Source: Cyanidioschyzon merolae (lineage: Eukaryota). From it: 64,000 nucleotides of DNA. Made by a program: the position numbers and the translations under genes. Where the stretch lies: assembly GCA_000091205.1 (NCBI GenBank), contig AP006500.2, one strand, 5' to 3'. Positions 4,511 to 59,685 of this stretch are shown here, piece after piece (the stretch's first letter is position 1; the number at the start of each line of letters is the position of its first letter). The notes beneath the pieces are model-generated. The model saw nothing but the letters and a program-made list of their open reading frames with translations, did no database searches and had not been told where the DNA came from.

Positions 4511-4592
4511 CCCTGCGGGACACGTTTCCATCCAGCGCCGCCTCTGAGCGCGTCGCGGCGCTTTCTCAAGCGCTATCCCGGTCGCGTTCGCG

Positions 4593-30610: not shown

Positions 30611-30949
30611 TGCAATGACGCTACCCCGGACGGTATTGGGACAGTTGGGACGTAGGGCAGGGCGCTTCGTTGCCACCCGCCGAACGCTGCCTCAGTGAAG
30701 AACGCGAGTGTGTCCGTTGTTGCATGTCTGGGGCCTGGGGCACGCTTGCGATGCGCACAAACTGCAATGCTCTAGCCGCCGGGCACTTGGGTCCACCACC
30801 GGCACGACCCCGGTCATCCTGGAGGTGCACCAACTAGGCAGCCCAGTGGCGTGCAGGAACAGAACGCGCTTCGCAAAGATCGACGCGGGACCACGTGTGC
30901 GAAGCTTACAGAGATGCCGCTAGGTTTCATCTAAAAGATCACGTAAAGC

Positions 30950-33789: not shown

Positions 33790-33810
33790 ATCACCACCAC
33801 CACCACCACC

Positions 33811-33843
<33 letters not shown>

Positions 33844-33845
33844 GT
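33790..33845. repeat. Poly-His-encoding (CAC)n(CAT)n microsatellite. A longer allele lies in the duplicate at 46070-46130.
   Basis: caccaccaccaccaccaccaccaccaccaccaccatcatcatcatcatcat seen directly. DR2 has a longer run. Confidence 0.9.
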
Positions 33846-33934
33846 TCACCAATGGCCCAGGAAAATCATGCCCGGCATACGCATAGGCGGGATGGTAGCA
33901 TTGCTGAATCGCCGACTCGTGCCATACCGGTGCC

Positions 33935-35140
33935 TTGCTCCAGGCGAGCGTTCAACGCACGCTCTCTTGCTCAATCATACTTTTTCGTCGCAAGTCTTCG
34001 GCATTTAAACACAGTGCCCACACGGAGCACGAATCGATTCGCTTTAAACTTCGCTCGATACACATAGCCGATAGACGCCCCCCAGGCACGAGACTTTTCC
34101 GGGTGTTGATCGAGACGTTCATGGCTCGGAGCGGAGCCTGCGCCCGCACACATGACTTGCGATGGAATCACACCAAAGTGAGCCTGCCAGCTTCAATTGC
34201 CTCGCAATTTGACGTCCGAGGTCCGCTCGCAGTATCCCATGTCGGACATTCCAAAGTGAGCCTGCCAGCTTCATTTGCCTCGCAATATGACGTCCGAGGT
34301 CCGCTCGCAGTATCCCATGACGGACATTCCAAAGTGAGCCTGCCAGCTTCATTTGCCTCGCAATATGACGTCCGAGGTCCGCTCGCAGTATCCCATGTCG
34401 GACATTCCAAAGTGAGCCTGCCAGCTTCTATTGCCTCGCAATACGACGTCCGAGGTCCGCTCGCAGTATCCCATGACGGACATTCCAAAGTGAGCCTGCC
34501 AGCTTCATTTGCCTCGCAATATGACGTCCGAGGTCCGCTCGCAGTATCCCATGACGGACATTCCAAAGTGAGCCTGCCAGCTTCATTTGCCTCGCAATAT
34601 GACGTCCGAGGTCCGCTCGCAGTATCCCATGTCGGACATTCCAAAGTGAGCCTGCCAGCTTCTATTGCCTCGCAATACGACGTCCGAGGTCCGCTCGCAG
34701 TATCCCATGACGGACATTCCAAAGTGAGCCTGCCAGCTTCATTTGCCTCGCAATATGACGTCCGAGGTCCGCTCGCAGTATCCCATGACGGACATTCCAA
34801 AGTGAGCCTGCCAGCTTCATTTGCCTCGCAATATGACGTCCGAGGTCCGCTCGCAGTATCCCATGACGGACATTCCAAAGTGAGCCTGCCAGCTTCTATT
34901 GCCTCGCAATATGACGTCCGAGGTCCGCTCGCAGTATCCCATGTCGGACATTCCAAAGTGAGCCCGCCAGCTTCAATTGCTACGCAATACGACGTCCGAG
35001 GTCCGCTCGCAGTATCCCATGTCGGACATTCCAAAGTGAGCCCGCCAGCTTCTATTGCCTCGCAATACGACGTCCGAGGTCCGCTCGCAATATCCCATGT
35101 CGGACATTCGGCCCTGTTTCCCAAGTGGCGCTCAACGTAG
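33935..35140 (+). CDS. ORF spanning the 78-bp (26-aa) minisatellite. Repeat protein HSKVSLPASFASQYDVRGPLAVSHDG x12. Its coding status is uncertain.
   Basis: The ORF is open in several frames on both strands. The minus strand gives LTLECPTWDTASGPRTSYCEAIEAGG repeats, because the unit length is a multiple of three. Unit variants gac/gtc and ttcatt/ttctat/ttcaat interleave. A second copy sits at 46224..47039 with 7 units. Confidence 0.25.
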   Translation: MLQASVQRTLSCSIILFRRKSSAFKHSAHTEHESIRFKLRSIHIADRRPPGTRLFRVLIETFMARSGACARTHDLRWNHTKVSLPASIASQFDVRGPLAVSHVGHSKVSLPASFASQYDVRGPLAVSHDGHSKVSLPASFASQYDVRGPLAVSHVGHSKVSLPASIASQYDVRGPLAVSHDGHSKVSLPASFASQYDVRGPLAVSHDGHSKVSLPASFASQYDVRGPLAVSHVGHSKVSLPASIASQYDVRGPLAVSHDGHSKVSLPASFASQYDVRGPLAVSHDGHSKVSLPASFASQYDVRGPLAVSHDGHSKVSLPASIASQYDVRGPLAVSHVGHSKVSPPASIATQYDVRGPLAVSHVGHSKVSPPASIASQYDVRGPLAISHVGHSALFPKWRST

Positions 35141-37623
35141 ACGCAGCACGAGCATCCGCACTCGAGCTCCGTCTGCGTCGCCATCTAGTCCTCCACAGGA
35201 AACGTGCAACATCGATTCCTGCACTCGCTGTACGCACAGGAGTCCAGCGTTTGCGTGCCACAGCACATCCAGCGCCACAGGCTTCCAGCAATCGACGCGA
35301 CCTGTTGGGTACTCCCTTTTCCAACTGGTCCAGGAGCTTTGCGAGTGCGCGCCCCTCGCCTCCGTCCAACCGAGTCCGTTGGTGGCCCCCCAGCGCCGTC
35401 TCACGGAATCCTGCCAAAGGCTGTGCGCATGCGCAGGTCAGACGCTCGTGCGCGCTCTGAGTTAAAAGTGGAAACCCATCCCACGCTGCTCGACACACTG
35501 CTCAGCGCGTTCACTTTCAGGTCCTGACGCAGTCATTCCGCCTCGTACTTCGCCGTATGCCATCCAAGGTGATGCGCGGCTCCCGATCATACCAAGTGCT
35601 GGACGCGCTGGGCAGCTCCGTCTGCTTGCCATTCAGGTCTTGGGCGGCGCCGTCCGCCTCATTTGCATACACGGGGACGACAAGGGCGCTCTTCAACCTC
35701 GGATCCACGCTCCCAACAGCGACTTTCTCCTCGTCTGCCTTGAACAGTTGAAAATGAGCCTCGTTGGTGACCCAGGTCACGCTTTCACGACGCCCATGCG
35801 TACTGGAGATCCGTCGGTATCCAAAGCCTCGCTACGCGCTGCACGCCATGCCTTCCATGGAGACTAGAAACATCTGAAGAAGCGCCGCCGACGCTTTTCG
35901 TGGACCTGTTCGAGTCCGTCATACTTGCGCGGAGACACCGGATCCTTCTTCGAATACTCCGGTACCTGGCGGAGCAGCACGGACAGCGACGCTTCACTCC
36001 GTATCCGTCTCTTCTTCGGGATCCAGATGCACTGGGTGGACGACGAGCGCCAAGCTCTCCCATACTCTGCTTGTATGCACGCTATCCTCTGTGATGCTTT
36101 TCGTGACCTCATGGGTCACGAGCACGCCCACGGAGTGCAGCGTGCGTTTCCGTTCGCTCCCGCGCACGACCAGGGCGCAGCAGCACAGCAGCTCTCGACC
36201 CCTGCATAGAAGAGAGTAAAGTCGTGGATTCGTCACAGAACGTTGTCTCGGAGGCGAACGACGCATCGACGGATCCGTGAGTGTCCACATGACCTTGGCG
36301 AGCAGACAAGTCGCCCTCGACTGGATGGAGTCGACGAGACCCAGCCCACACTAGGAGCCGTCCACGGCCGTGCGCAGCAGCGTGCGCCTTGGTCGCTTTT
36401 CAGTGGTGATTCGCGACGTCGTAGATTAACAGGACGGTAGAGTACCTGAAGAAGAAGAAGAAGGAGACACAGCAGAAGCCAAGGAGAGTTTCGTCGACTC
36501 GTGAGGCAACAAACGAGCAGGGCTTTCTCGCGAGCTGCAGACCATCACACCAAAACCCTCTCTGCTGCTAACGCCAACACCGTTCTCACTACGGCTGGTC
36601 TCCTGTTTATGACCAGAAGCTTGCCGCAATTTGAGCTCCCATATACACGCCAAGCATCGCTTCCAAATAAAGCCCCATCGACTTCGATGGACACCAGTCC
36701 GCCCTGTGATGAGCATTCGCATTGCCGTTCGGAATCGAACGCGTGGTACTCCACTCGCGACAGTCTCCCAGACAGGCGTGCTTGCTTTTCGTCATCCATC
36801 CGCGTCTTTTCGTCCCAGTTCGTATCGACAGCACAGAAACATCACGCCGTTTGGATTTCTCTCGGTAGGACGTCTCAGGGCACGCAAGCTTAGAAAGCGA
36901 CTGACGAGGCGACACTCGGGTAGAAAGTGCCGGAAAATTTCCGTTTTCGCTCGACAACGTTCATGATATCGGTGAGGATTCGGTTGGTTCACCCATGTGC
37001 TGACCGTGGAATGACTGACTTGTACATGTATGAGCTTTTCTTGCGAGCTCGTCCTGGCAGCATCAAGTCTCTCTGCGCCCGTTCTCCAATATCCAGCATA
37101 CACTCCGTCGGATGAAGACCTGCGACATCGATAAACGAAAACACCAGCGTGCTTGCTGGTACAAGGCACCCATGAATTCATGAATCTAAGTCTCTGAGTA
37201 TAACAATGCACAGGCGTACATATAAACATGAACGTGCCAAAGATCCGCGATGAGCGTCTAATCGGGAGGTTGCGTACGAGACGCACACCGCCCCGCCGAC
37301 GGCTGCTGCACCAGCAAGCTGGGTAGAAGGTCTTGACATGATTCAGGCGTGTTGCTGGTGCATCTGGCATTCGCCTCGAGGCCAAGTCTCCGTCGTAAAC
37401 GCGCGTAGATTTACAACCAACCCTGTCAACTCAAACGTGCGTGACCTGTATCGGAATCGTGTCCAACCTGGTATCATGCGTTTCTGCCCGCTCGCTCAAC
37501 GAGTCTCAGCAGCGCTTGAGAAGCCAGGTTGCATCGCGCAGCCATATGACCTGCAATCAAGTAACACGCTACGTTTCCCGAATGGTCATCATCAGGGCAA
37601 TGGATGCAGTGCCTGTCTCGTAT

Positions 37624-39237
37624 CTAGTTGGGCACGAGCAGCTTTCGTTCAACAAGCGAGCGGGGCCGCCGCTTATGCTCCAAACGCATCTCGTTTTCTG
37701 GTGCAAGTCCGATGCAAGCTCTGAGAATGTTTTCGATGCAGAGGCGCTGACGTGCTAGCGCATTCACCACAGGAGTGCCCTCTGGCACAACGGGTGCCTT
37801 GAGGAAATAGCTCAGTAGCGACAACACGGGATGGAAACGCTCAAATTTTTCCTCATCGGCTCTCTTCATCTCAATACGCTCTGCAAGCTCTGCGAGAATG
37901 GTCAGGTCGAGGATAAGTGGCGCCGCTAGAAGCGAGTCCTCACAGGTCTGGTGAACGACAATGGTGTTCCGTCCGCCCATGAAGATTTCGCTTTCGTACT
38001 CGTCGAGCGCACGTTTGCTATCGCCAACCGCCGGCACATACTTGATGACAACTAAATGGTCCGGACTCTCACCGGGCCTGTAGAGAACCCCGTTACTGGC
38101 AACCATGTCATCCACAACGCTTGACTTGGATATTTCCTTGCTACGAAACTGGCTCGGTGCCGATAAATTCTTTCCATCATTATTACCGAGATGATTATAG
38201 GAGGCTATCGAGAGGGGTTTGATACCGGCACCGATCAGAAAATCAGCGAGAACTGATTTCAGCTTTGTTTGACCCGATTTGAAATCATCGCCACCAATAA
38301 AGACGTCACGTTGCACAGCGAGGTCGATAACCCCGGGCACAAACGTGTTCTGCGGAGAACCGTTAATAAACGAGCAGCCTTCCAGAATTGATGCTGTGGC
38401 AAATAGCGCGCTCGGCGATATCTCCGAGTGACTCGCAGCAATTGCGTGCAGAAGATTCTCCGCGGTATCGTTCACCCCCTCCATGACAGTAGCGTAGCGT
38501 TCCGTGTTGGCCGTCCACAGCACGATGACCTTTTCCACGTTCCTCTCGGCTTTGAAAGCGCGAATATCTGCGCGGATTTTCTCCAAATGTTCCCACTTGT
38601 TGGTGCCCGGGATCAGATTGTCGGCACGTGACGCCTGGTTCGCCGCAATGAAATCCCCATACAGCACCGATGGTAAAGGTTTCAAAGGGGCCATGTACGG
38701 CTCGAGCTGCAGCTGCAGATCGTAGTCAAGTACTTGCGCGCGACGCATCGCTTCTGCGAGGTTCGCACTGGAGATATCCCAGCCACCAATCTCCAGGTCG
38801 TTGGGATTCACCATCGGCAATAGGGCGCGCAAAGGCACAAATACGTCCTCCTCAAATCGCCCGTCGCTTTCGTAAAGACTACCCAGCCGAACGGTGGCGG
38901 ACTGTGTTAGAGAGCCGAAATAGTTCGGAGTCTGAATGCCGTGCTTCGTACGCCAGGTGATGCCCTCGCGGTTCGCAATGACTGCACCAGTGACGGTACT
39001 GCCGTTGTTGCCACCCCAGCCCACCAGCATAAGACCCACCCTCGGTACACGACGCTGCGTGCGGAAAGTATACTTGACCGATAAAGGCCGCACAATCGCA
39101 CGACCACTGTTTCGCTCCAAACGCACGGCATTCGTTTCGTAGTCGACGTCCGCTTCTATGTAGTCGGGCGTGTACCGCACGTTCGGCGCTTGAACGTAAA
39201 CCTCTTCTGCGAGCATTTTCTGCAAGTTCCTAACCAC
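37624..39237 (-). CDS. INO1: myo-Inositol-1-phosphate synthase (MIPS).
   Basis: It has the full-length MIPS signatures: [71 protein letters not shown] and [34 protein letters not shown]. It is 537 aa and intronless. Confidence 0.92.
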
Positions 39238-41541: not shown

Positions 41542-44352
41542 TTGGCTCGCGGCGTCTTCTATCCAACAGGGATCGAAGAAGCTGGTTGGCTCTCCCTGCT
41601 TGCTATTAGGGTTCCGGAAATGGAAGAAAGACGCAGTGACGTCTTTGATCCCCTGCCGGATCGTAGTCACGCGGCGATCTCGTGGCGAACAGCGGAACCG
41701 CAGACGCCGTCGCCACCGCTGCCAACGGACTTTCCGCGGCCGGTGTCTGCACCGCCCGACTTGGAAGTCCCCGAGCCTTTGCTGCTCGCGTCGTCGGGGA
41801 TCCAACCGAACTGGTTCTCAATCGTGGATATTCGTGCTGATATGGACTATGAATCGTTCTATGATGCTTTTAAGGCGCAAACGAAACTGCCTCCGCCGTT
41901 GGACTCGAGCGTCTTGCGCGGCGACTTTCGAACGGTGCAGCGAGTCCGAAGTCAAAACGAGCGGAGAGAGCACGTATCCATGGACGCTGCGCTGGAACAG
42001 GCGGGTCACGCGTTGGCTGGTCTAGGGGGTACTGGGGGAGCCTCGCTAACGCCGCACTCGTTGGCAGCGTCAAACCGCGGTTATGGCGAGGCGATGCGGT
42101 TCACAGATCCGCACGGGGGGCTCTTAACCATGGAACAAGTTGCGGTCTCGAGCCACGCGGCTCTGGGCAAAGGGCCTGCGTCGCCGGATCAGATGTTATT
42201 CCCCGGAAGCCGAGCCTCACAGATGATGGCAGGGAGCGGCGCGCCTGCAGAGGTATTGCGGCCGGTTGCGAACGCTGGCGCGCTCTTGCGACGCGACGAC
42301 AGTGACGCCTCCGTGGAGAACTTAATTTTCCGTGAAACGCTCAAATACGCCCGACAACTGGACAGGGAGAGTTCGGAAAGCGATCTGAGCACGACCGCGG
42401 AGCGGCGGATAACCGGCTCTGCGACCCAGACAACGAACGCTGCTATATATCATGAGGCGGATCGGCGACTCTGGCAAGCACCGCTCGTCGCTACCACGGT
42501 GCTTTACTCGTCCACGAAGCCGCATCCTGACACTAACGACAATGCGCTCGCACAGAAGGCTGTAGGCTTGGCGGGCACTCAGGATACGGACGGCACAAAA
42601 AATCACGCCGCAGCAACAGCAGCTGCTGCGAGCGCTCCCTCTCATATTTCCGACAACAGCGCAGGTGCAGGTCGTATCCCAAGTGGTGGTACCGGCTGTG
42701 AAGCCGGCGAACGATACGAGGAGCGCAGCTCGCCCCGATCGCGGAACGAACTCGCTGCTGGCATCCAGCGGGGCGTACCGTCGCGTTCGCAGACTCCATC
42801 GATGGCTGCTATTGCAGCCGTGAGTCCGCCCGTTGCCACGATCACCCCGGGGAGTTGTGCAGCAACCTCCGTCGTGCCGCGCATCCCAGTGACGACCTCC
42901 ACGATGGGCGCTCAAGTGGCTCAGACATCCACCCTGATGCCAGCCTGGACAGAAGCTGTTGCGCCAGTCCAGAGTATGGAGAATAGTGGCGCCTTTGACA
43001 TTCGGGATATTCGCGCTCCGCTACCGCACCCGGGTGCCGAGCATCTGCCGAAAAAACCATGGAGCACACGCGGGCGTCCCCGTCGAGCTCCGCGAAACAC
43101 AGCCCGTAGCAGCATTTATCTGGGGCAACATCAAGCGATGCCGTCTCAAGAGCTGCCTGTTGGACTCGATGCTGCGGCTTCTGGTCACCAACCGCATCAT
43201 CCTGAGCTTGTCTCGTTCAAGAGTGCTGCTCTTGCGGCATCCATTCCGACAAACACAGCGCCTGACGGGGCCTTGAGTGACGCGTCTGCCCCGCTCTCTT
43301 GCTTTGCTGGGCGTATGGCGCTGATGGCTCGGGATCAACAGGGAGGCCGCTACCTCCAGGCGCGTCTCGATGTCAAGAATGCTGCAGACACGGCGCTTAT
43401 TTTCGAGGAGTGTCGACCGCATTTCGTGGAGCTTGCGATGGATCCTTTTGGGAACTATCTATGTCAGAAACTCTTCGAGCACTGCAACCGCGAGCAACGG
43501 CTAGAGCTCATTCGACAGAGTGCATCGCAGCTGGCTCAGGTTTGTATGGACCCGCATGGAACTCGCGTTGTGCAGAAAATGATCGAGCTTACCGTTGAAC
43601 CTGAGCACGCCGCACTCATCGCCCAGGCCATCTCGCCGCACTGCCTATCGCTGATGTGTGACGTGAATGGAAATCACGTCATTCAGCGATGCTTACAGAG
43701 AATGGATGTCCCGTTGAGACGCTTTATCTACGACACCGCCCTCACGCGTTATCTGGAAATCGCGAGGCATCGACACGGCTGCTGTGTACTGCAGCGTTGC
43801 CTCGATCACGCGACGGCGGAACAGCGCAGCAACCTCTGCGCCCTGATTCTGAACAGTGCCTATGAACTGATGCAAGACCCGTTCGGCAACTACGTCGTAC
43901 AGTACGTGTTAGAGCTCAAGGAGCCGTCGTATACGAGGGCAATCATTCAACGCATTCGTGGCCACCTTTGGCAGCTTTCCATGCAAAAGTTTAGCTCGAA
44001 CGTGGTAGAGAAAGTCTTCACGATGGCGAACGAGCGAGACCTGCGATCACTGCTTCACGAGCTTTTAGAAGGCCCACAGTCGGTCGAGAGCATGCCGCTA
44101 CAGGTCGGCTCCGAGCAGCACCAACGAAATATACGACCCCTGCTTTTCGATCCGTATGCAAACTACGTCGTTCAGCGGGCGCTTTCGCTGGCGCCCTCAC
44201 CCGTGTTTGAAGCGTTGCGGGAAGCGATTCAACCGCACCTGGCGGAGCTGCGCGGCACACCCTTCGGGAAACGTATTCAAGCTCGCCTCTCACGGACGCC
44301 TTTGCGGACCGGTTCAGCGGTGACGTCCGCGAACGGCTCCAAACGACTCTAG
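41542..44352 (+). CDS. Pumilio/PUF-family RNA-binding protein with eight PUF repeats at the C-terminus.
   Basis: PUF repeats include FGNYLCQKLFEHC, DPHGTRVVQKMIE, DVNGNHVIQRCLQ, HRHGCCVLQRCLDH, DPFGNYVVQYVLEL, QKFSSNVVEKVF and DPYANYVVQRALS. The N-terminal ~550 aa is low complexity. The start may be the Met at 41617 (MEERRSDV). Confidence 0.9.
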   Translation: MARGVFYPTGIEEAGWLSLLAIRVPEMEERRSDVFDPLPDRSHAAISWRTAEPQTPSPPLPTDFPRPVSAPPDLEVPEPLLLASSGIQPNWFSIVDIRADMDYESFYDAFKAQTKLPPPLDSSVLRGDFRTVQRVRSQNERREHVSMDAALEQAGHALAGLGGTGGASLTPHSLAASNRGYGEAMRFTDPHGGLLTMEQVAVSSHAALGKGPASPDQMLFPGSRASQMMAGSGAPAEVLRPVANAGALLRRDDSDASVENLIFRETLKYARQLDRESSESDLSTTAERRITGSATQTTNAAIYHEADRRLWQAPLVATTVLYSSTKPHPDTNDNALAQKAVGLAGTQDTDGTKNHAAATAAAASAPSHISDNSAGAGRIPSGGTGCEAGERYEERSSPRSRNELAAGIQRGVPSRSQTPSMAAIAAVSPPVATITPGSCAATSVVPRIPVTTSTMGAQVAQTSTLMPAWTEAVAPVQSMENSGAFDIRDIRAPLPHPGAEHLPKKPWSTRGRPRRAPRNTARSSIYLGQHQAMPSQELPVGLDAAASGHQPHHPELVSFKSAALAASIPTNTAPDGALSDASAPLSCFAGRMALMARDQQGGRYLQARLDVKNAADTALIFEECRPHFVELAMDPFGNYLCQKLFEHCNREQRLELIRQSASQLAQVCMDPHGTRVVQKMIELTVEPEHAALIAQAISPHCLSLMCDVNGNHVIQRCLQRMDVPLRRFIYDTALTRYLEIARHRHGCCVLQRCLDHATAEQRSNLCALILNSAYELMQDPFGNYVVQYVLELKEPSYTRAIIQRIRGHLWQLSMQKFSSNVVEKVFTMANERDLRSLLHELLEGPQSVESMPLQVGSEQHQRNIRPLLFDPYANYVVQRALSLAPSPVFEALREAIQPHLAELRGTPFGKRIQARLSRTPLRTGSAVTSANGSKRL

Positions 44353-46029: not shown

Positions 46030-46084
46030 TGCATGTCAATGTACGGTCAGGTATGTCGAATCATGGATCACCACCACCACCACC

Positions 46085-46132
<48 letters not shown>

Positions 46133-49093
46133 GTTCACCAATGGCCCAGGAAAATCATGCCCGGCATACGCATAGGCGGGATGGTAGCATTGCTGAATCG
46201 CCGACTCGTGCCATACCGGTGCCTTGCTCCAGGCGAGCGTTCAACGCACGCTCTCTTGCTCAATCATACTTTTTCGTCGCAAGTCTTCGGCATTTAAACA
46301 CAGTGCCCACACGGAGCACGAATCGATTCGCTTTAAACTTCGCTCGATACATATAGCCGATAGACGCCCCCCAGGCACGAGACTTTTCCGGGTGTTGATC
46401 GAGACGTTCATGGCTCGGAGCGGAGCCTGCGCCCGCACACATGAATTGCGATGGAATCACACCAAAGTGAGCCTGCCAGCTTCATTTGCCTCGCAATATG
46501 ACGTCCGAGGTCCGCTCGCAGTATCCCATGACGGACATTCCAAAGTGAGCCTGCCAGCTTCATTTGCCTCGCAATATGACGTCCGAGGTCCGCTCGCAGT
46601 ATCCCATGACGGACATTCCAAAGTGAGCCTGCCAGCTTCATTTGCCTCGCAATATGACGTCCGAGGTCCGCTCGCAGTATCCCATGACGGACATTCCAAA
46701 GTGAGCCTGCCAGCTTCATTTGCCTCGCAATATGACGTCCGAGGTCCGCTCGCAGTATCCCATGACGGACATTCCAAAGTGAGCCTGCCAGCTTCATTTG
46801 CCTCGCAATATGACGTCCGAGGTCCGCTCGCAGTATCCCATGTCGGACATTCCAAAGTGAGCCTGCCAGCTTCAATTGCTACGCAATACGACGTCCGAGG
46901 TCCGCTCGCAGTATCCCATGTCGGACATTCCAAAGTAAGCCTGCCAGCTTCTATTGCCTCGCAATTTGACGTCCGAGGTCCGCTCGCAGTATCCCATGTC
47001 GGACATTCGGCCCTGTTTCCCAAGTGGCGCTCAACGTAGACGCAGCACGAGCATCCGCACTCGAGCTCCGTCTGCGTCGCCATCTAGTCCTCCACAGGAA
47101 ACGTGCAACATCGATTCCTGCACTCGCTGTACGCACAGGAGTCCAGCGTTTGCGTGCCACAGCACATCCAGCGCCACAGGCTTCCAGCAATCGACGCGAC
47201 CTGTTGGGTACTCCCTTTTCCAACTGGTCCAGGAGCTTTGCGAGTGCGCGCCCCTCGCCTCCGTCCAACCGAGTCCGTTGGTGGCCCCCCAGCGCCGTCT
47301 CACGGAATCCTGCCAAAGGCTGTGCGCATGCGCAGGTCAGACGCTCGTGCGCGCTCTGAGTTAAAGGTGGAAACCCATCCCACGCTGCTCGACACACTGC
47401 TCAGCACGTTCACTTTCAGGTCCTGACGAAGTCATTACGACTCGTACTTCGCCGTATGCCATCCAGGGTGATGCGCGGCTCCCGATCATACCAAGTGCTG
47501 GACGCGCTGGGCAGCTCCGTCTGCTTGCCATTCAGGTCTTGGGCGGCGCCGTCCGCCTCATTTGCATACACGGGGACGACAAGGGCGCTCTTCAACCTCG
47601 GATCCACGCTCCCAACAGCGACTTTCTCCTCGTCTGCCTTGAACAGTTGAAAATGAGCCTCGTTGGTGACCCAGGTCACGCTTTCACGACGCCCATGCGT
47701 ACTGGAGATCCGTCGGTATCCAAAGCCTCGCTACGCGCTGCACGCCATGCCTTCCATGGAGACTAGAAACATCTGAAGAAGCGCCGCCGACGCTTTTCGT
47801 GGACCTGTTCGAGTCCGTCATACTTGCGCGGAGACACCGGATCCTTCTTCGAATACTCCGGTACCTGGCGGAGCAGCACGGACAGCGACGCTTCACTCCG
47901 TATCCGTCTCTTCTTCGGGATCCAGATGCACTGGGTGGACGACGAGCGCCAAGCTCTCCCATACTGTACTTGTATGCACGCTATCCTCTGTGATGCTTTT
48001 CGTGACCTCATGGGTCACGAGCACGCCCACAGAGTGCAGCGTGCGTTTCCGTTCGCTCCCGCGCACGACCAGGGCGCAGCAGCACAGCAGCTCTCGACCC
48101 CTGTGCATAGAAGAGAGTAAAGTCGTGGATTCGTCACACAACGTTGTCTCGGAGGCGAACGACGCATCGACGGATCCGTGAGCGTCCACATGACCTTGGC
48201 GAGCAGACAAGTCGCCCTCGACTGGATGGAGTCGACGAGACCCAGCCCACACTAGGAGCCGTCCACGGCCGTGCGCAGCAGCGTGCGCCTTGGTCGCTTT
48301 TCAGTGGTGATTCGCGACGTCGTAGATTAACAGGACGGTAGAGTACCTGAAGAAGAAGAAGAAGAAGGAGACACAGCAGAAGCCAAGGAGAGTTTCATCG
48401 ACTCGTGAGGCAACAAACGAGCCGGGCTTTCTCGCGAGCTGCAGACCATCGCACCAAAACCCTCTCTGCTGCTAACGCCAACACCGTTCTCACTACGGAT
48501 GGTCTCCTGTTTATGACCAGAAGCTTGCCGCAATTTGAGCTCCCATATATACGCCAAGCATCGCTTCCAAAGAAAGCCCCATCGACTTCGATGAACACCA
48601 GTCCGCCCTGTGATGAGCATTCGCATTGCCGTTCGGAATCGAACGCGTGGTACTCCACTCGCGACAGTCTCCCAGACAGGCGTGCTTGCTTTTCGTCATC
48701 CATCCGCGTCTTTTCGTCCCAGTTCGTATCGACAGCACAGAAACATCACGCCGTTTGGATTTCTCTCGGTAGGACGTCTCAGGGCACGCAAGCTTAGAAA
48801 GCGACTGACGAGGCGACACTCGGGTAGAAAGTGCCGGAAAATTTCCGTTTTCGCTCGACAACGTTCATGATATCGGTGAGGATTCGGTTGGTTCACCCAT
48901 GTGCTGACCGTGGAATGACTGACTTGTACATGTATGAGCTTTTCTTGCGAGCTCGTCCTGGCAGCATCAAGTCTCTCTGCGCCCGTTCTCCAATATCCAG
49001 CGTACACTCCGTCGGATGAAGACCTGCGACATCGATAAACGAAAACACCAGCGTGCTTGCTGGTACAAGGCACCCATGAATTCATGAATCTAA
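46030..49093. repeat. DR2, copy 2 of the ~3.4 kb direct duplication. It has a poly-His (CAC/CAT)n run at 46070-46130 and 7 units of the 78-bp minisatellite at 46460-47010.
   Basis: See DR1. The peptides are near-identical: 46224..47039(+), 46951..47397(-), 47416..47679(-), 48405..48797(+) and others. Confidence 0.9.
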
Positions 49094-49944: not shown

Positions 49945-51834
49945 CTACGAGAGGAACAGGGATTCGACGGGCTCCCAGTAGCCAGCTTCGCGTTCCCAGG
50001 CGAGCAGACGGTCCACCTCCTCGGCCGATAAGGTTACGCTCTGGTGCGCGCTTTGACGGACACCGGCCACTGTACGTTCGAGCAACTGACGGTAGGTGGC
50101 ACGGTCAGCGAAAAAGTTCACCGGCGGTGGTGCCTGCTGAAATTCCCGGTAGAAATCACGCAACGTGATGAGCGCCATTTCCAGCCACATCTCATCCCGC
50201 TCAACGACGAACAACCGCGCGCCCGCATCAGGTGTCCATGAAATGAAATGGGCTCGCCAGGTATCTGTGCAAAGCATTTGGAGCTGGACCTGGGCAAAAT
50301 GGTTCGCATAGATCAGCCGCTGCGGTGAAACCAAGCGGTAGCGATAGAGCGGACGATCTGTGGCTTCATCCGTTAGTCGCGGGCCGTCAGTCATGTCTCC
50401 TGTTGGGACAAACGGGCAGGGACATTTCACTTCGACGAGTTCGATATCGTGCGACAAGTCGCTCGAAGCAGCCAATGTGTTCGGTTGCGTATCCTGGGTC
50501 CGGGCCTCAGAATGAAGAGGACTGCGCCACCTAAGCAGCGCGTCTGGGCTCGCCGCGATCGTTGGTAACGCTGAAAATTCGTCCAAGTCATAGATGCCTG
50601 CACAGGAGGCCGGCTGCAGCATATGCAGCCCCGCTTCGACAAGCACCAGTTTCGCGAAAGAAGTATTCGTCGCTGTGGACGCCCCGGGAACAAGGCCACG
50701 GTCTGGAGCACCGTCCCCGGGAACAATCGAGTAATAGCAGGATGCTGCATCCGCAGTACGCGCGGATTCGAGGTAGCGCAGCACCGTCAACAGTCCATTC
50801 TGTTCGTGCATTTTCCCCCACTCCATCGAGATCATCGATGCTGGAGAAAAGGTCTCAGCATCGAGTCCCGGCTCGCGCCACTGGCGCCAGGCCTCCAGTG
50901 CAGCTTCACCTCCGCGTCGGAACTGCCATGCCGGCACACACTCCCGCAACCATTCGAGGGTTGCGGGTTCACCGAAACCAAGCGCTTTCCATGCGGACGA
51001 AGCATTCACTCGCATGTGCCGTCGTGCCTCTAGCCACAGCGCCGAGTCCTGTCGGATACGAGTTAGATCCTCTGGACGTTCGATCACGAGCGCCTCAACC
51101 GGGGGCAGCGCCTCGTAGCAGGGATGTCGCCGGAGTTGCTCTCTTGTGATTGCGCAATATGCTAGGTTCGGTTTCGTGCCAGTCGGATCAGGATGGGTCG
51201 TTACTGTGAGCTGGCGCTTCGATGGATGCCCTGGAGCTGGTGCGGACGGCTCGCGGGGCCTCTCATCGTTGACAGATGCCCGTGAGTGTTGTTCGCAATG
51301 ATCCGCAAACCTATCGAGCCGCTCGAGCAGAAGCTGCTTCTGGTTCATGCTGAACTCGAGGTAACGACCTATTGCTGTCCGGTACCGCCAGACAACGGTG
51401 AGAATTTGTTCGGAAAGCACACCTCCGCCGAGTACGGCACTTAGCAAGGCGTCCACCTGGGTTTGGAAGGCCTGGCCGGCGCGCTCGTTCCCCGCATCCA
51501 CAGCTAATCGCTCACATTCGCGACGAACAAGGGTTCGCAGTTTCCGGAAACTCTCCATCACAGGATGCACAGACTGCGGCACGGAAGATTTGATGTATCC
51601 GCCGGATTGTTGGTGGACACACCTGACTGCTCGCCGCTGCAGATAATAGTGGTTCCTACGCGGCTGCGGGAGCGCGGTAACGCAGCGCGATATCTTGTGC
51701 CGTGCAGCAAGACGTCGAGTGCTCGAGCGTTGATGGCACAGGTGCGGCCCAGCCGCGAAACCGCTTGCAGTCTCTAACATCAAGTCACGACCTCGCGGCG
51801 TTTCTCTGATAGAAAACACCTGCGGGTTCAACAC
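49945..51834 (-). CDS. YqaJ-like viral-recombinase-type PD-(D/E)XK exonuclease domain protein of 629 aa with a long N-terminal extension.
   Basis: The YqaJ hallmark motifs appear in order: WLEARRHMRVNASSAWKALG (R...ITAS), MEWGKMHEQNGL (M.G..HE), ELVEVKCPCPF (E[IV]KCP) and YANHFAQVQLQMLCT (Y..QVQ.QM). Confidence 0.7.
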   Translation of the reverse strand: MLNPQVFSIRETPRGRDLMLETASGFAAGPHLCHQRSSTRRLAARHKISRCVTALPQPRRNHYYLQRRAVRCVHQQSGGYIKSSVPQSVHPVMESFRKLRTLVRRECERLAVDAGNERAGQAFQTQVDALLSAVLGGGVLSEQILTVVWRYRTAIGRYLEFSMNQKQLLLERLDRFADHCEQHSRASVNDERPREPSAPAPGHPSKRQLTVTTHPDPTGTKPNLAYCAITREQLRRHPCYEALPPVEALVIERPEDLTRIRQDSALWLEARRHMRVNASSAWKALGFGEPATLEWLRECVPAWQFRRGGEAALEAWRQWREPGLDAETFSPASMISMEWGKMHEQNGLLTVLRYLESARTADAASCYYSIVPGDGAPDRGLVPGASTATNTSFAKLVLVEAGLHMLQPASCAGIYDLDEFSALPTIAASPDALLRWRSPLHSEARTQDTQPNTLAASSDLSHDIELVEVKCPCPFVPTGDMTDGPRLTDEATDRPLYRYRLVSPQRLIYANHFAQVQLQMLCTDTWRAHFISWTPDAGARLFVVERDEMWLEMALITLRDFYREFQQAPPPVNFFADRATYRQLLERTVAGVRQSAHQSVTLSAEEVDRLLAWEREAGYWEPVESLFLS

Positions 51835-52367
51835 AGTCAGAACACGTCCACGGCGCCGCCGGTGTCAATCGCGAGAGCGTAGTTGATTCAAGACGCTTTT
51901 CAGGAGAAAAAAAGCTCACCAAAGTGCTCACGGAGCGTCTGCCGTCACACGCTCGGGTACTCACCAACGAGCGCACGTGTTCTGGTTTGGGAGGTTTCAG
52001 GTGCCCGAGGCAGCAAACACAGGCTCCCTTTGTCCCGTCTCGATGCGCCAGCAACAGTGACGTAGACCAGCGGTCGTCCCTGTTGGACCGATCTTCGTTT
52101 CAAACGATTCGTTTGGAGCACCGTCTCCTCCAAAAGCGCTTCGTATGCGCTTGCCAGCTGCAACGGTAGCGGCAGCGTCGGCCTCGTGTACGCAGGGCAC
52201 GGGACGGCCTTGGTCAAGCAGCTGGGCATGAAATTTGTCTAAACTGGATATACCTGGACTTGGCGGACGCGAGTAGAGGGTTGCGCTTTGGAGGTGGTGC
52301 TCAGTGCGATTCCGTTGGAAGCACGTACCAGTCTCGACGAGCTGGCGTATGGGAGCGTCTCTAGACT

Positions 52368-53756
52368 GGTATAAGAATGAAATAAAGGAGGCTCATGCAG
52401 GGAACTCGGGCGTATACGAATGAATTCTGGAACTGTTCCCACTGTTATTGGCACAAGCCTTTGCGGGCTCTCTCTCATGCTGCTTCCCGATCCTCGTTCT
52501 TGTTTGTCTCCGGATTTTACATACGCCGGCCTTTCTTGTCTCTTCAGGTCCGTTGCCAGCAGTCGAAGGATGTTTATGGCTGCCCCCGAGTCTCGGTTAC
52601 GTCGTTTTGCAGCTCTTACCGACGCATTTGGTGCACAGATGGAAGCTGTGATCTACGATTCGGTAACGATTTGCATCTTTCTTGTATACATCGGTAGCTC
52701 TCGATCCGCGACGTTTACACTTGAGTGTCATCAGGTGCTCCCATACGTCCATCACAAGACTTCGTCCGCTGAGCGCCGCCCTGTGACGCGTGAACGCTCG
52801 CTGCATCGCTCGATACATGCCGTTGACTGGCAAGAAACGAAAAAGCTTCCAACGATCCTGTGCTTCGGTTCCTGGCCCAGTGCTGCACTCGAAGACCAGG
52901 AGCTGTATCTGGGCGATACGCGCGGCGAGTACGCTGTCCGCTGCACTTGCAAGTGCATGCTATTCTAACGAATAGAGGATTTTAGGACCTTGTTGTTGCC
53001 TGTGATGAAACAGGTATCGGAGAGGGAATCGAGGCTCCGGAGTACGTCGAAAAGTATCGAACCGAATATGCTCGCTTCGTGCAAAGCGGAGATGCGCGCT
53101 CCATAGAGACAGATCGCTGTAATGACTCATGTCCATATCCAAGACCATTTCTTATAGAGCTAGGAGAGACGGGAACTCCTGCGCGCATATCCCGTCGAAG
53201 GCATGGTGATGGTGCATTCGCGACCGGCTTCGTCGATGACCTGCAGGAAATGAAGCTTCATCTTTAGACCGGAGACGATTATGCGACGTCGGCAGCTCCA
53301 CGAGGTTTTCGGCATGCGCTTGTAAACAAGTCGTCAAAGCTCGACGTCGACAATTTTTTGCGTCGTCAAGTGTGCGGTGCCAATGGATACGCCTCGAGTT
53401 GCCCGTGAACACAAGGATCCAACACTCGTAGAATGCGTGATTCGATTCTGGTACACGTAAGAAAAGGATTCAAGAACAGTGGCAGCTCGTTTCTATAACT
53501 TCGATGACGATATCGGTTATTTGACGAATCCGAGCTCGGGGATGTCGCGAATCATCCTGATGAAGATGACGTAAAAGCGTCCAGCGGCACAGCGTGAAAG
53601 GCTCCTCTGCGAAAAGCCGACCGCGGATCCAAAAATTACGCGTGAATCCGGCAGCACTTGCACCTGCTTTTCGCATGTCGAGGCTGTACACGTAAAAAAG
53701 CTCGGGAAAATTGAAAGACCCGAATGGAGCCACAGCTTCAGTGTTCCATTTTCATC
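52368..53756 (-). mobile_element. IR-B, the inverted near-identical copy of IR-A, carrying TnpB/Fanzor-like relic copy d in minus orientation.
   Basis: It is the reverse complement of 29221-30610 with a few substitutions. The internal dispersed-repeat segment at 53040-53270 is homologous to 7850-8125, 45200-45520 and 61741-62070. Its left edge is ~530 bp from the YqaJ gene start. Confidence 0.55.
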
Positions 53757-54818
53757 TGGTACGTTTCTGGGGCAGCGGAGACCCTGTTCCTCATTGGTGA
53801 CAGAGCTTGCCCATTTTATGAGTGCTGACTCAATGCACTGTTGCAGTACCATAAAACATAACCAACGCAACAGCTTTTCCACATGATTTTACTTGTTTTT
53901 GCATCAAGCCTCGACAAAGGCACGGCCGTAGACGGCAAATGTGTCTTCATCCGTTACGTGCATCAGTACGGCCTGCCATGAACCATAATCCGGATCGAGT
54001 TCAGCGACTCGACGCGAAAGCTACAAGATGGTGGACAGGTCTTGCACACCGCCGCAACGTGCAACTAGCGGAGGCGATAGTAGCGAAGACGCTCACCAGC
54101 GCTTCACCGGACAGCGGTCCAGTGCGACGTTGATGATAGTCTGAGATTCACCGCCATGTTAAGGGGCACACGTACACCCGCGCAGTTTCGTTTGGCGTTC
54201 TGCTCCAAACAGCGTCACGAAGCCCGGGAGGACGCAACGCGAGACCCAGCTACGACTGCGCTTGCCGGCGCTAGTGCCGGCGTTGCGGTGCACGAATCAT
54301 GCATTGCTCATCAACAAACTGGTCGCTGTCACGCTCCATGACGCTTTGAGGGCACCATGAAATCTTCAACAAAAGTTTTGAACAGGAGTCTGCGCTGCCG
54401 CACGTGCACCGAGCGCACGTTCGCAGTCACAGAACGTGCAACGGAACCGTTGACGGTGCTATGGCTCGCTTCGGTCATGCTTTCTATGCCGCCGAGACTC
54501 CCACGTCGATACCGATGCCGGACAACGACTGTGACCAGGGAGGATACTTTGCGAGACGCGAACTATCTTTACTGAGGACTGCATACAGCCTGAGTCATCA
54601 CGACTCATCGCCGGTAACGTCTACAGGCACGACTGGAACTGCAGCGCCCAGCCTAGAACCGCGCATCTCTGTCCGTCATGCTGTCGAGGGATGTCCCGAA
54701 TCCATCCTCTGGCATTCATCAAATTCCAGGTGCAGTCCATTGCCTAGTGGACCTGATGCATGAGCGGCTCATCGTCTAATGACGTTGGAGATGAACAGCT
54801 CGCATCGGCAATCGGTGC

Positions 54819-55736
54819 TTACCGGACGACTGGGCCAAGGGCACGCAGCTCTAGTCGCTGCCGCTCTGCCCAGAAGCATCCGCTATACAAATGCGGTTCT
54901 TGCTCCGCTTCGCGCGGTAGCAACGCGAGAAACACCGCTGTATCTGCGCCCTCTTCGACAGTCTTCACACCCCGATGAGATGTCATGTCGGTTTTCACGT
55001 AGCCAGGACACATGGCGTTCACGAGCACATGCGGATGTATCGAGCGTAGCCGCTGCGCTAGGATTACGGCGTACATGGTTTCCAGCATTTTGCTCACCGC
55101 ATACGTTTGACGCGGCCATCCGTGCTGCGCATAGGAGCCATCCCCCACAGAGCGCACAAAATCCTCGGCGAGAGCATCCAATTCCTCGACGGTGCGCGCT
55201 CCCAGAAGACGCTCTCGGAGCTCAGCATTCGTTATCTTGTCAAAATTGCCAGCCCTGGATGAAACGAACACAATGCGACCCCCATCAGGCTGAATGTAGG
55301 GCAAGAGAGCCTCAGTCACGAGCTTCGTTCCGTAGTAGTTGCACCCAACGGTTTCGCGGGCAACTTTCTCGTCAAATGCGTCTCCTTTGTAGGCCATACC
55401 AGCATTATTGACCAAAATATCGACGGGGCGCTTCAGGGACTTGACATAGTCGCGGAACTTGGTTACCGTGTCCGGCTGCAGCAAGTCTAGCGCATGCCAA
55501 AGCGCCGGGTGCTCGGTGCTACCCACCTCTTTACTAATTGAATCGGCAGCCTCTTTAGCTGCCTCAGGTGTGCGTGCCGTAACCAAGACCTGCAGGCCTT
55601 CCTCCTGAGCAAGGCGCTTGGCGATGGCCCGGCCAATACCTCGTGAGCTTCCAGTGATAATCGCTAAGCGAGTCATGATTGCGTTTTCCCACAGTCTGTG
55701 CGGATTTCTTGAAAATCTGCTCTTAATTCTATACAA
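54819..55736 (-). CDS. Short-chain dehydrogenase/reductase, carbonyl reductase [NADPH] (CBR1-like).
   Basis: The Rossmann motif is AIITGSSRGIGRAIAKRL. The NNAG motif is VDILVNNAGMAYKG. The catalytic YxxxK is YAVSKMLETMY. It aligns end to end with CBR1 from memory: ...GWPRQTYAVSK...NAMCPGYVKTDMT...EEGADTAVFLALLP. It is 305 aa. Confidence 0.88.
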   Translation of the reverse strand: MYRIKSRFSRNPHRLWENAIMTRLAIITGSSRGIGRAIAKRLAQEEGLQVLVTARTPEAAKEAADSISKEVGSTEHPALWHALDLLQPDTVTKFRDYVKSLKRPVDILVNNAGMAYKGDAFDEKVARETVGCNYYGTKLVTEALLPYIQPDGGRIVFVSSRAGNFDKITNAELRERLLGARTVEELDALAEDFVRSVGDGSYAQHGWPRQTYAVSKMLETMYAVILAQRLRSIHPHVLVNAMCPGYVKTDMTSHRGVKTVEEGADTAVFLALLPREAEQEPHLYSGCFWAERQRLELRALGPVVR

Positions 55737-55974
55737 TCCTGCGCCTACCTTGAAGAGAATTCTAATACGAGACCCTCTTTAGGTGCTAGCGCACGTCTAC
55801 CACTACTATACGCGGAGCAAATCCAAACCAACACAGAAGAAGTTTGTCACAACAAACGGAAATGGCGCAATGCACGACGCAGACGCGTATGACTGGCAGG
55901 CGCTGCATCGCGAAAACGTCGCGATGCGTCGCGGCGCAGGCGGAGGCATCATCTGTGCTGGAGCATAATGCGTG

Positions 55975-56195
55975 GTAAGTTTTATACAGGATTTGACAGG
56001 TACAATGAAGCGGACGTGCGTGATGCGTGACAAGTTTTATACAGGATTCGACAGGTACAATGAAGCGGACGTGCGTGATGCGTGACAAGTTTTATACAGG
56101 ATTTGACAGGTACAATGAAGCGGACGTGCGTGGTAAGTTTTATACAGGATTTGACAGGTACAATGAACCGGACGTGCGTGATGCTCATGACGCAG
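55975..56195. repeat. Tandem array of a ~55-bp unit, about 4 copies, starting ~240 bp upstream of the carbonyl-reductase gene start.
   Basis: The unit aagttttatacaggatttgacaggtacaatgaagcggacgtgcgtgatgcgtgac occurs four times. The last two are slightly shortened or variant. Confidence 0.85.
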
Positions 56196-57381: not shown

Positions 57382-59685
57382 GTGAAAGGAGTGAGCGCAC
57401 AGGTTCACTTGTGTTCGATAGCAGATCTAGACTGTACAGGTTTTAGGCTGAAGAACACGTCGCAGATGCGCTCAAGCGTTGTGACGCTTAGCGGATGGGC
57501 GCTCAGGAACCTCAGGTTCGCATACCCGCGTAACAATGACGGAGTTCGCGTGCTGAAACGCTTTCTTGGCCGGGACCTCGCATCGAGACAGCTGATCCCG
57601 CATACGCGCTTTTTGGCGACAAGCGCAGATGGCTCTGCGTCTCTACCTGGGACGCAGAGCGCAGAAACACTCGCAGTTTCTGCTGAGAGTGAGGCGCTTC
57701 GGTCGGCCTTGGGGTTGCTGCGCAATCATCGGATCGCGGAAGCGCATCGCGTCGTACGGGAGCAACTCCTGGCCAATGGTCCTCTTCCCACAGAGGTCCG
57801 GCGAAAGATTATGTCAGCTGGATCGCGTAGTGGCGCAACTGCTCTGGTCGAAGAAGTGCTGGAGCGCACGGTATCGGAAACCGCGGAACCTTCTTCTTCT
57901 GTCTTCGATCACAATGCCGTTCTGCGAGCGTGTGAAGTCGCCATGGATCTTCATCGAGCGGAAAGAATTTTCAGTAATATGCCTGAACGAAATCATTACT
58001 CGTACGCGATCATGGCGGTAATCTACAGCAACGCTGGCCGCATGCGACATGCACTGGACATGGCTTCCAGGGCACTCGGTGGACTTGACCTGCACAAAGC
58101 ACTGGAGAAGTTGCCGTCTCAGACCAAATCCACCGCTGCCCCAGCAGATGCAGAGACCATCCCGGCTGCCGCCAGCGCCTCCGAGGAGCAGTCGGCCATG
58201 GAGGCCGAGGAGGAACCTGCGACGGCTGCCGAAGATCACCTGGAAGAAACGCCCTCAACGGCGACGGGTGCGCTCACCCCAGCCCAAAAGTCTTTCCTCA
58301 TGAGTCGCCTGATTGATTCCTCGTTGCGCTACCGCTACAACCACGTCGCACTCAACTTATTGCGTGTCATGCGAGAGGAGCTTAGAATGCGGCCGCGCTT
58401 GACAACGATTTCCAACTTGCTTGTCAGGTTATGCAATGCCAACAATGCGCAGGCCAGCTATGAACTGCTGAACGGTATTCGTCGGCCGGGCATATGGGCA
58501 ACACTACGCGGTGCGCGCCCGATAGAACTCGGTGTGTTGCTTCCGGCTCTGGGTTGCGCACTTCGAAACGACCACTATGCTCTTGGTGATCTGGCGTGGA
58601 ACGAGATCCAGAGTCGCTACTTGCCTGCCGAAAGGCAGATTGTTCTTGGATCCGTCTCGGCAGCCGGCGAGAAGAGCGCTAGCCAATCCCTCTTCGAAGT
58701 TCCTGACATATTCTTTTATACTCGCGCGAATCTGTTAGCGCGGCAAGACAGCAAGGAGTTCCAAAGCACGAAACCAGAGGAAGCAACAAGCAGTGCTCCC
58801 GCTGCGCAGCCGGCGCCAGGAACCGCAGACTCGAGTACCAGCACAGAGCCTCGAACCGAGGTTATCTTGAGTGAGCGGATGCGTTCGTGTTTCGAGCTAT
58901 TGCGGCTGTTGCATCACCGCAAGTATCAGCGTGTGCTGGGTCTGGACATCACCGTCGATGCAAGAGACACGGCGCCTCGGATAGAGCTACTTCGCGGAGT
59001 CGTGAATTCGCTCGCTTGCCACGTTGACCGGGTCGATGCTGCCCATTTCTTCCTGGAACATGAACTTGTTCGGGAAGCCGTGCCGAATACCGCCGCACCG
59101 CAGGCGCTGCTACCAGGAAAAATGGATCTTTTAGCTCCCTTGAATTGTGTCATTGCAGCGTCGTCGCAAATGGGAGACCTTGACCGCGCATTTCAAACCT
59201 ACGAAACCCTACAGGATCATGGTAAGAAACACCAGCTTGTTCCGAATATCGAGACTTTTAATGCGCTTTTGCTTGGATGCGGCAAGCAAGGTCACTGGGA
59301 GGCGGCCAAGCTTGTCCTGGAAAAGATCCAGGAAGAGCAGTTGAAGGCGACTGGCGAGACGCACGAGAAGATCCTCTACGTGATGCTTCGAGCGCGCCGT
59401 TTCCAGGAGGCCATCGAGTACCTGCGCCAGAACTCGAACCAGCCGAAGCATGCGGAGGACCAAGCGCGTGCAGGTCGCGCCCCCGTTCCTTTTACTGCTT
59501 ATCGAATGGTAGCGCGCATAGCGCTTCTTAGACCAGATGCTCCAGCGGTTGTGCGTGAATTGCAGCATCTTGCAGCACAGGCCGGCTACCATAATCTAGA
59601 TTTGACTCGGATACACTCGGCTCGTGCCCGCGAAGAACGTGGTGCTAGCAATGCAAGCGCCTCGGGAGTGAACCCATCATCGTGA
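57382..59685 (+). CDS. PPR/TPR-like helical-repeat protein of 767 aa, likely an organellar RNA-binding protein.
   Basis: PPR-like 35-aa helical pairs include NAVLRACEVAMDLHRAERIFSNMPERNHYSYAIMAVIYSNAGRMRHALDM. A second is TFNALLLGCGKQGHWEAAKLVLEKIQEEQLKATGETHEKILYVMLRARRFQEAIEYL. It has an N-terminal presequence-like region and Ala/Glu-rich linkers. Confidence 0.5.
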   Translation: MKGVSAQVHLCSIADLDCTGFRLKNTSQMRSSVVTLSGWALRNLRFAYPRNNDGVRVLKRFLGRDLASRQLIPHTRFLATSADGSASLPGTQSAETLAVSAESEALRSALGLLRNHRIAEAHRVVREQLLANGPLPTEVRRKIMSAGSRSGATALVEEVLERTVSETAEPSSSVFDHNAVLRACEVAMDLHRAERIFSNMPERNHYSYAIMAVIYSNAGRMRHALDMASRALGGLDLHKALEKLPSQTKSTAAPADAETIPAAASASEEQSAMEAEEEPATAAEDHLEETPSTATGALTPAQKSFLMSRLIDSSLRYRYNHVALNLLRVMREELRMRPRLTTISNLLVRLCNANNAQASYELLNGIRRPGIWATLRGARPIELGVLLPALGCALRNDHYALGDLAWNEIQSRYLPAERQIVLGSVSAAGEKSASQSLFEVPDIFFYTRANLLARQDSKEFQSTKPEEATSSAPAAQPAPGTADSSTSTEPRTEVILSERMRSCFELLRLLHHRKYQRVLGLDITVDARDTAPRIELLRGVVNSLACHVDRVDAAHFFLEHELVREAVPNTAAPQALLPGKMDLLAPLNCVIAASSQMGDLDRAFQTYETLQDHGKKHQLVPNIETFNALLLGCGKQGHWEAAKLVLEKIQEEQLKATGETHEKILYVMLRARRFQEAIEYLRQNSNQPKHAEDQARAGRAPVPFTAYRMVARIALLRPDAPAVVRELQHLAAQAGYHNLDLTRIHSARAREERGASNASASGVNPSS

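Follow-up and report, generated by a model that had tools for sequence, protein, structure and literature searches.

The closest described counterparts of CMR041C, a nuclear gene of the red alga Cyanidioschyzon merolae, are lambda exonuclease (Red-alpha) and LHK-Exo of Laribacter hongkongensis, compact enzymes of ~200–226 aa. The gene lies in a 64,000-nt stretch of contig AP006500.2 (assembly GCA_000091205.1), referred to below as the window. With these two enzymes its 611-aa product shares the YqaJ family (PF09588) and the fold and active site of the PD-(D/E)XK superfamily. A toroidal trimer and processive 5'-3' activity are features of lambda exonuclease, with which CMR041C was compared by residues and model only. 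In contrast to both enzymes, CMR041C is a eukaryotic nuclear gene with no annealase gene adjacent, has three insertions within the nuclease domain, and additionally possesses an N-terminus that resembles a presequence, a four-helix bundle, and extensions on the N- and C-terminal sides that are specific to its family. A second group of counterparts, the YqaJ/R354-like nucleases of giant viruses (mimivirus R354, PDB 5yet; Clandestinovirus; Medusavirus), show 13–16% identity to the algal protein and lack its family-specific extensions, whereas the algal gene occupies a syntenic chromosomal locus and is inherited vertically in the Cyanidiales. Among eukaryotes, ORF2 of ISL2EU DNA transposons (PHIS superfamily) encodes a protein that includes an exonuclease domain of YqaJ type (PMC4482050); there the YqaJ ORF sits alongside a DDE/THAP transposase, both enclosed by terminal inverted repeats, and the element is multicopy. 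Finally, OEX1 and OEX2 are nucleus-encoded, imported 5'-3' nucleases of plants that maintain organellar genomes (bioRxiv 10.1101/2024.11.05.621957; PMC12164749). They share the job proposed below for CMR041C but have an unrelated fold (a Pol I-derived FEN 5' nuclease versus PD-(D/E)XK), and OEX1 has been characterised experimentally. Set against these systems, CMR041C is very probably a host-encoded nuclease of the YqaJ fold.

In a program-made list of open reading frames (ORFs), the locus appears as 629 codons on the minus strand (49945..51834), a strand that the original prediction left unstated. The 629-aa protein of the original prediction corresponds to this ORF, which is real, but the coding sequence begins at an ATG and is shorter:

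49945..51780, minus strand: coding sequence of CMR041C, 611 aa plus stop codon (49945–49947), start ATG at 51778–51780

The GTG at 51834 was rejected as a start, as the ATG-initiated product matches CMR041C over its full length (611 of 611 aa, 100%, with XP_005538358.1 / UniProt M1VGM7); the GTG start stems from calling ORFs with the bacterial code. The interval is CMR041C of strain 10D (BAM82322.1 / XP_005538358.1, on a record of 1,253,087 bp), a single-copy nuclear gene in a window of ~56% G+C whose ORFs are long and intron-free, with non-coding DNA between them. M1VGM7 carries the UniRef/UniProt label “YqaJ viral recombinase domain-containing protein”. Since gene and label both stand in public annotation, the finding counts as already known: this is an ordinary annotated gene, for which no experimental work was found and which no paper recovered in the literature search mentions. 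An Rfam scan of the window gave no match, and an exact look-up of the C. merolae protein in a contig index found nothing.

That the protein is a YqaJ-type nuclease, as originally predicted, is borne out by matches to PHROGs, to family profiles and to known folds, which agree with one another. PHROG 434 (“RecE-like recombination exonuclease”) matches intact CMR041C directly (E=3e-6), and its orthologues at similar values, while NCBIfam TIGR03033 (“lambda-exonuclease family”) gives a weak match at the QVQ motif. By BLASTP, CMR041C matches one phage ORF at E=1e-11, and this ORF (locus L008) is itself PF09588 at 3.9e-24 (86 bits) within an AAA_24/DUF669 recombination module; unlike CMR041C, it has the AAA_24 and DUF669 genes beside the exonuclease. 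When a family profile of 48 sequences was compared with PDB, it recovered LHK-Exo (3syy) at 1.4e-9 and lambda exonuclease (1avq, 3slp) at 2.8e-7, with the N-terminal Q..W..R...TAS motif and the SPD / ExK / QxQ..M block aligned in register; PDB sequence searches with the single protein or a 4-sequence profile found nothing. PF09588 is passed individually by 24 of 48 members in alignment A3 and by 33 of 87 in alignment A5, counts that include CMR041C, itself without such a match. At the level of sequence models, membership in the YqaJ family is established by profile and transitive evidence and not by Pfam's own threshold. The structure prediction that the original prediction had proposed as a check recovered a fold of lambda-exonuclease type. 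The model has a predicted local distance difference test score (pLDDT) of 80.2 and a predicted template-modelling score (pTM) of 0.68, a quality reached only with distant relatives added (pLDDT was 35 with a 4-sequence alignment), and the top Foldseek matches in PDB and in the viral set (BFVD) are all YqaJ-type nucleases. The modelled three-dimensional fold is that expected of a lambda exonuclease.

The four YqaJ motifs named in the original prediction are all present, two of them with slight deviations. In the numbering of the 629-aa translation they are as follows; all other residue numbers in this text refer to the 611-aa protein.

271–280: RRHMRVNASS, matching the R...ITAS-like motif
337–344: MEWGKMHE, for which the actual pattern is M..G..HE
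468–472: EVKCP
512–520: HFAQVQLQM, with H replacing the Y of the pattern as first given

The essential aspartate of the ASPD motif, absent from that list, is present too. The key residues and motifs of the nuclease domain are:

51022..51024, minus strand: R253 in ...W-LEA-R-RHMRVNASS, in the register of lambda exonuclease R28
50803..50805, minus strand: E326 in WGKMHE, acidic residue of YqaJ motif II and presumed second metal ligand
50542..50544, minus strand: D413 in IAASPD, catalytic Asp of PD-(D/E)XK, equivalent to lambda exonuclease D119
50425..50433, minus strand: E450-V-K452 in ELVEVKCPCPF, catalytic ExK, equivalent to lambda exonuclease E129 and K131
50275..50292, minus strand: Q497-VQLQ-M502 in HFAQVQLQM, helix motif following the catalytic strand

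E326 and D413 do not vary among the 48 sequences of A3 and reach at least 90% conservation among the 87 of A5; D413 falls on the SPD motif in lambda exonuclease as well as in LHK-Exo. Conservation of at least 90% in both alignments also holds for E450 and K452, which align to LELK in lambda exonuclease and IEIK in LHK-Exo. Q497 and M502 are at least 90% conserved; their motif aligns to YMAQVQYSM of lambda exonuclease, and its region is the site of the direct TIGR03033 and PHROG 434 matches. As judged from these alignments, the PD-(D/E)XK metal site (E326, D413, E450, K452) is complete. The motifs and the intact active site of the original prediction hold, because the catalytic residues map onto those of lambda exonuclease and are conserved, and the catalytic competence drawn from them is supported to that extent. 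In lambda exonuclease, R28 is a residue of the 5'-phosphate pocket. R253 was placed in register with R28 manually, after HMMER had aligned the family profile with residues 13–40 of lambda exonuclease.

Motif I (residues 249–261; alignments A3/A4) splits the family into two types. The first, found in Cyanidiales, Porphyridium and others, has Arg at the position of R28; the second, mainly diatom-like, reads LH.GR.TTS, with His at this position and Arg three residues on. From the sequences, this split may mean different recognition of the 5' end.

Outside the catalytic core, the predicted model divides the protein into four parts:

51577..51780, minus strand: residues 1–68, disordered, basic and acid-poor N-terminus (pLDDT <50)
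51271..51567, minus strand: residues 72–170, four-helix bundle (pLDDT ~90)
Residues 172–196: disordered linker
49948..51192, minus strand: residues 197–611, domain of YqaJ/lambda-exonuclease fold with family-specific extensions

The helices of the bundle are modelled at residues 72–94, 99–118, 124–138 and 145–170. Its structural matches in PDB are to generic helical bundles only. It is conserved in the Cyanidiales, and the Porphyridium relative (P0037) matches profile positions 21–338; a role in partner binding or regulation is a guess. The nuclease domain, of ~415 aa, carries low-confidence insertions at ~348–370 and ~420–445 in the model, and a third loop insertion (~460–478) is visible in alignments. 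Directly ahead of the core lies an N-terminal extension with the consensus G..PN..W.AI....LR.HP.F..LP, and the core is followed by a C-terminal extension, PPP.NFF.....Y..FL..T, ending in FLD (FLS in C. merolae). Both are mostly lacking in the compact phage enzymes, and most viral matches span the core alone. The ~250 aa of unique N-terminal sequence originally described shrink accordingly, with the bundle (72–170) matched in Porphyridium and the motif at ~197–240 conserved throughout the family.

An exhaustive profile search found 352 relatives (106 at E<=1e-10), of which a word-indexed homology search reached only 3–4. Seven have a named source: C. merolae, Cyanidiococcus yangmingshanensis, Porphyridium purpureum, Mesostigma viride, Pseudictyota dubia, Gymnodinium smaydae and a marine-protist transcript from MMETSP. 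They cover red algae, a streptophyte alga (Mesostigma), a diatom (Pseudictyota) and a dinoflagellate (Gymnodinium), and wherever the organism is known it belongs to a plastid-bearing lineage. No experimentally characterised member of the family was found in the literature, nor did the search yield any paper on a plastid YqaJ enzyme or any characterised organellar enzyme of YqaJ type.

The similarity to viral enzymes raises the question of origin. An old domestication, in which a YqaJ gene of a virus (giant virus, phage or prophage) or transposon was captured by an algal ancestor, is possible though on the doubtful side; it concerns where the gene came from, and is compatible with the explanation of its role favoured below. 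Identity of the core to 172 confirmed loci from viral contigs is 24–36% in the best aligned segment, the structural neighbours ranked highest in BFVD are YqaJ/R354-like proteins of Clandestinovirus, Medusavirus and Mimivirus, and Pfam's own family name calls YqaJ viral. The eukaryotic family, however, has its own conserved N- and C-terminal extensions, which the viral loci generally lack, most of their matches spanning ~32–267 of the 322-residue query.

As to the role of the protein, the N-terminus provides the main indication. Residues 1–75 contain 12 K/R against 1 D/E, together with 11 S/T, and there is a Phe at position 8; a cyanidialean orthologue (P0003) begins MFSIVVS.... A Phe close to the N-terminus matters in the plastid presequences of glaucophytes, red algae and red-derived plastids (PMC2222254). 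The composition suggests that residues 1–68 are a putative organellar import presequence, most likely of plastid type. Diatom relatives open with a hydrophobic stretch of signal-like character and then show AAAS|FLIPSQ or FLVPSQ, a site that resembles the ASAFAP-type junction of diatom plastid-targeting signals and the signal-peptide/Phe junction known from red-derived secondary plastids. A stromal protein of comparable description is known from tomato, where a “phage-related exonuclease”, the orthologue of At1g67660, was listed among novel proteins of the stromal proteome (PMC10493611).

Two further observations concern these N-termini. For the Cyanidiococcus orthologue (P0002, 552 aa; L001 9869–10000) the annotated start is probably too far downstream: an in-frame ATG lies 44 codons upstream with no stop between, adding MLGFAVLFPGVADQQC... 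and giving a start MLGFAVLF..., which agrees with the presequence-like starts of the other two orthologues. In the diatom-type relatives P0041, P0042 and P0035, F-L-[VI]-P-S-Q is conserved within the N-terminal 30–100 residues, after the signal-like segment, and P0035 has it twice, the second copy reading CLIPSQ.

On these grounds CMR041C could be an organelle-targeted DNA resection enzyme, an assignment we make tentatively. The presequence (residues 1–68) would bring about import into an organelle, with the plastid the likeliest, where the protein would bind the ends of double-stranded DNA and, with Mg2+, digest the 5'-phosphorylated strand in the 5'→3' direction. The 3' single-stranded tails left behind would serve recombination-dependent repair or replication, or else linear organellar DNA would be degraded; the four-helix bundle (72–170) may tether the enzyme to a partner. 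Taken as a whole, a host YqaJ-fold nuclease imported for resection of organellar DNA is the best explanation of the data and a reasonably probable one. Of the two roles considered in the original prediction, that of a host organellar DNA-maintenance enzyme fits, with the localisation inferred, and that of mobile cargo does not.

Several observations weigh against this explanation. Pfam, the first check proposed for the YqaJ assignment, finds nothing on intact CMR041C even at E<=1, and nothing on the domain-only segment. PF09588 appears only after manual removal of the insertions (E=2.8e-4), and then at 21.6 bits against a cut-off of 22. The full-length protein is missed because three lineage-specific insertions split the domain, and the family call needed the more sensitive evidence given above. 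The restriction to plastid-bearing lineages comes from the seven organism-named relatives, a small sample, and membership of At1g67660 in the CMR041C subfamily could not be shown. A basic N-terminus discriminates neither between plastid and mitochondrion nor between a presequence and a disordered nuclear tail. The partner expected from a phage Red/RecET module is also missing, there being no gene for a single-strand annealing protein beside CMR041C or at the corresponding loci of Cyanidiococcus (L001) and a third cyanidialean assembly (L002). Lastly, an RNA-binding La domain is fused N-terminally to the nuclease in 3 of 48 relatives, including P0027 of Gymnodinium smaydae, which is a hint that some lineages use RNA, and not DNA, as substrate.

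The ambiguity of the N-terminus bears most directly on the alternative of a nuclear or cytosolic nuclease that is not imported into an organelle and acts in double-strand-break processing or in defence against viral or other foreign linear DNA. The fold and active site are silent on compartment, the basic N-terminus could be just such a nuclear tail, and the nearest viral structural neighbours are the giant-virus R354/YqaJ nucleases, of which R354 belongs, according to its PDB title, to a mimivirus defence element. We nevertheless regard this alternative as unlikely: with one acidic residue among the first 75 and a Phe near the start, in each of the three cyanidialean orthologues, the N-terminus is not what it would lead one to expect, and neither are the signal-like start and ASAF-like junction of the diatom relatives, which are unexpected for nuclear proteins. 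Action on RNA, for example in 5'-end processing or decay of organellar transcripts, is very improbable. It would accommodate the La fusions, and some viral alkaline exonucleases of the same superfamily have RNase activity (PMC3424549), but Pfam and NCBIfam recognise no RNA-binding domain in CMR041C, the closest solved structures are exonucleases of double-stranded DNA, and the Arg aligned to the 5'-phosphate pocket is typical of DNA enzymes.

The genomic context shows CMR041C as part of a conserved host neighbourhood, next to which lies one copy of a long inverted repeat:

37624–39237, minus strand: myo-inositol-1-phosphate synthase
41542–44352, plus strand: PUF protein
54819–55736, minus strand: short-chain dehydrogenase (SDR)
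57382–59685, plus strand: PPR protein
29218–30625 and 52351–53758: the two copies of an inverted repeat, 1408 nt, 99% identical, with sharp borders

The gene order is PPR, SDR, CMR041C, PUF and inositol-phosphate synthase. Cyanidiococcus yangmingshanensis (L001) has all five with order and relative orientation preserved, and the third cyanidialean assembly (L002/L003) preserves both for the four genes that the contig has room for. The orthologues of CMR041C in these genomes have 53–55% protein identity. Between species, the proportion of nonsynonymous differences (pN) is 0.20–0.33 and that of synonymous differences (pS) 0.74–0.81, which is saturated; the gene is under strong purifying selection, as the gap between pN and pS indicates.

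The stretch between the repeat copies is 21.7 kb long and includes at least six further long ORFs, among them three host genes: PUF, inositol-phosphate synthase and one with a Cyanidiococcus orthologue. The start of the nearer copy (52351) lies upstream of both codons, at a distance of 517 nt for the GTG and 571 nt for the ATG, close to the ~530 bp first estimated. No blastn match to the repeat was found at the orthologous loci of Cyanidiococcus and the third genome, and the spacer between the dehydrogenase and the nuclease gene measures 1.35–1.44 kb in these sister genomes versus 3.0 kb here. In metagenome contigs from near-identical C. merolae populations, assemblies break at the repeat or 144 nt inside it, and the repeat therefore occupies the corresponding position there too. 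It seems to have entered an intergenic spacer at the level of the species, by insertion or duplication, and to have no connection with the nuclease gene; a non-autonomous repeat and a segmental duplication are both candidates for what it is.

The repeat had been taken for a TnpB-like element adjacent to the gene, which it is not. Its longest ORF in 52351–53758 is of 182 aa, intact in both copies, and an exact look-up of this ORF in the contig index found nothing. Scans of the repeat ORFs (8 against Pfam and 2 against NCBIfam, E<=1) gave no TnpB or other relevant match, the only two hits being at chance level (E 0.15 and 0.065) and unrelated to TnpB. A TnpB/Fanzor neighbour was rejected, there being no long ORF with a RuvC-like nuclease and zinc ribbon (OrfB_IS605 / OrfB_Zn_ribbon). 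An ISL2EU-type element was likewise rejected, in view of the dehydrogenase and PUF neighbours, the lack of a transposase domain, the single syntenic locus and the distance between the repeats.

That CMR041C is cargo of a larger mobile unit bounded by or linked to the inverted repeat, as also suggested in the original prediction, has next to nothing left to commend it beyond the repeat copy upstream of its ATG and the occurrence of YqaJ ORFs in transposons such as ISL2EU (PMC4482050), and is largely refuted already by a single-copy gene collinear in three genomes and in an order kept where the repeat is missing, by host genes between the repeats, by a repeat without transposase, by the lack of a DDE transposase beside CMR041C, and by nonsynonymous change far below synonymous change (dN far below dS). 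The relatives are a cellular eukaryotic family, and the orthology is essentially to a conserved family with no link to mobile elements.

The window has other repeats besides. A direct duplication (33792–36747 and 46081–48651, ~2.6–2.9 kb, 98–99% identity) has no blastn match in the sister genomes. Each copy holds a tandem array of a 78-nt repeat (~11 and ~7 units) and has a (CAC)n(CAT)n tract ahead of it (33763–33843 and 46040–46132); the arrays generate long spurious ORFs on both strands, e.g. 33935–35140 and 46224–47039. Further tandem arrays, intergenic or flanking ORFs, are found at 21107–21908, 4116–4589 and 55969–56184, with periods of ~92, ~79 and ~55 nt. In the 20–22 kb bin G+C falls to 0.50, the minimum for the window, and GC skew is strongly negative. 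The other copy of the inverted repeat is flanked by two long ORFs without Pfam or NCBIfam match, 30950–32362 (minus strand, 470 aa) and 27322–29043 (plus strand, 573 aa). The former is Q-rich and, by eye, coiled-coil-like; it has a blastn-detectable orthologue beside the inositol-phosphate synthase gene in Cyanidiococcus, and is therefore a conserved host gene.

The main value of the analysis is a correction: CMR041C is a vertically inherited host gene and not mobile cargo, and the repeat adjoining it is not TnpB-like. There is also a modest lead, a eukaryotic YqaJ family with conserved extensions that has so far appeared only in plastid-bearing lineages. It is conceivable, though speculative, that plastid-bearing eukaryotes (red algae, streptophyte algae, diatoms, dinoflagellates and possibly land plants) import into their organelles a resection nuclease of lambda-exonuclease type derived from a phage or virus. 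Organellar RNA polymerase, primase-helicase and DNA polymerases of phage type are already known. If the proposal is true, the nuclease would join them as an uncharacterised component of recombination-dependent replication and repair of organellar DNA. C. merolae, in which gene targeting by homologous recombination is possible, allows a direct test of whether a phage-type 5'-3' resection exonuclease is at work in plastids or mitochondria.

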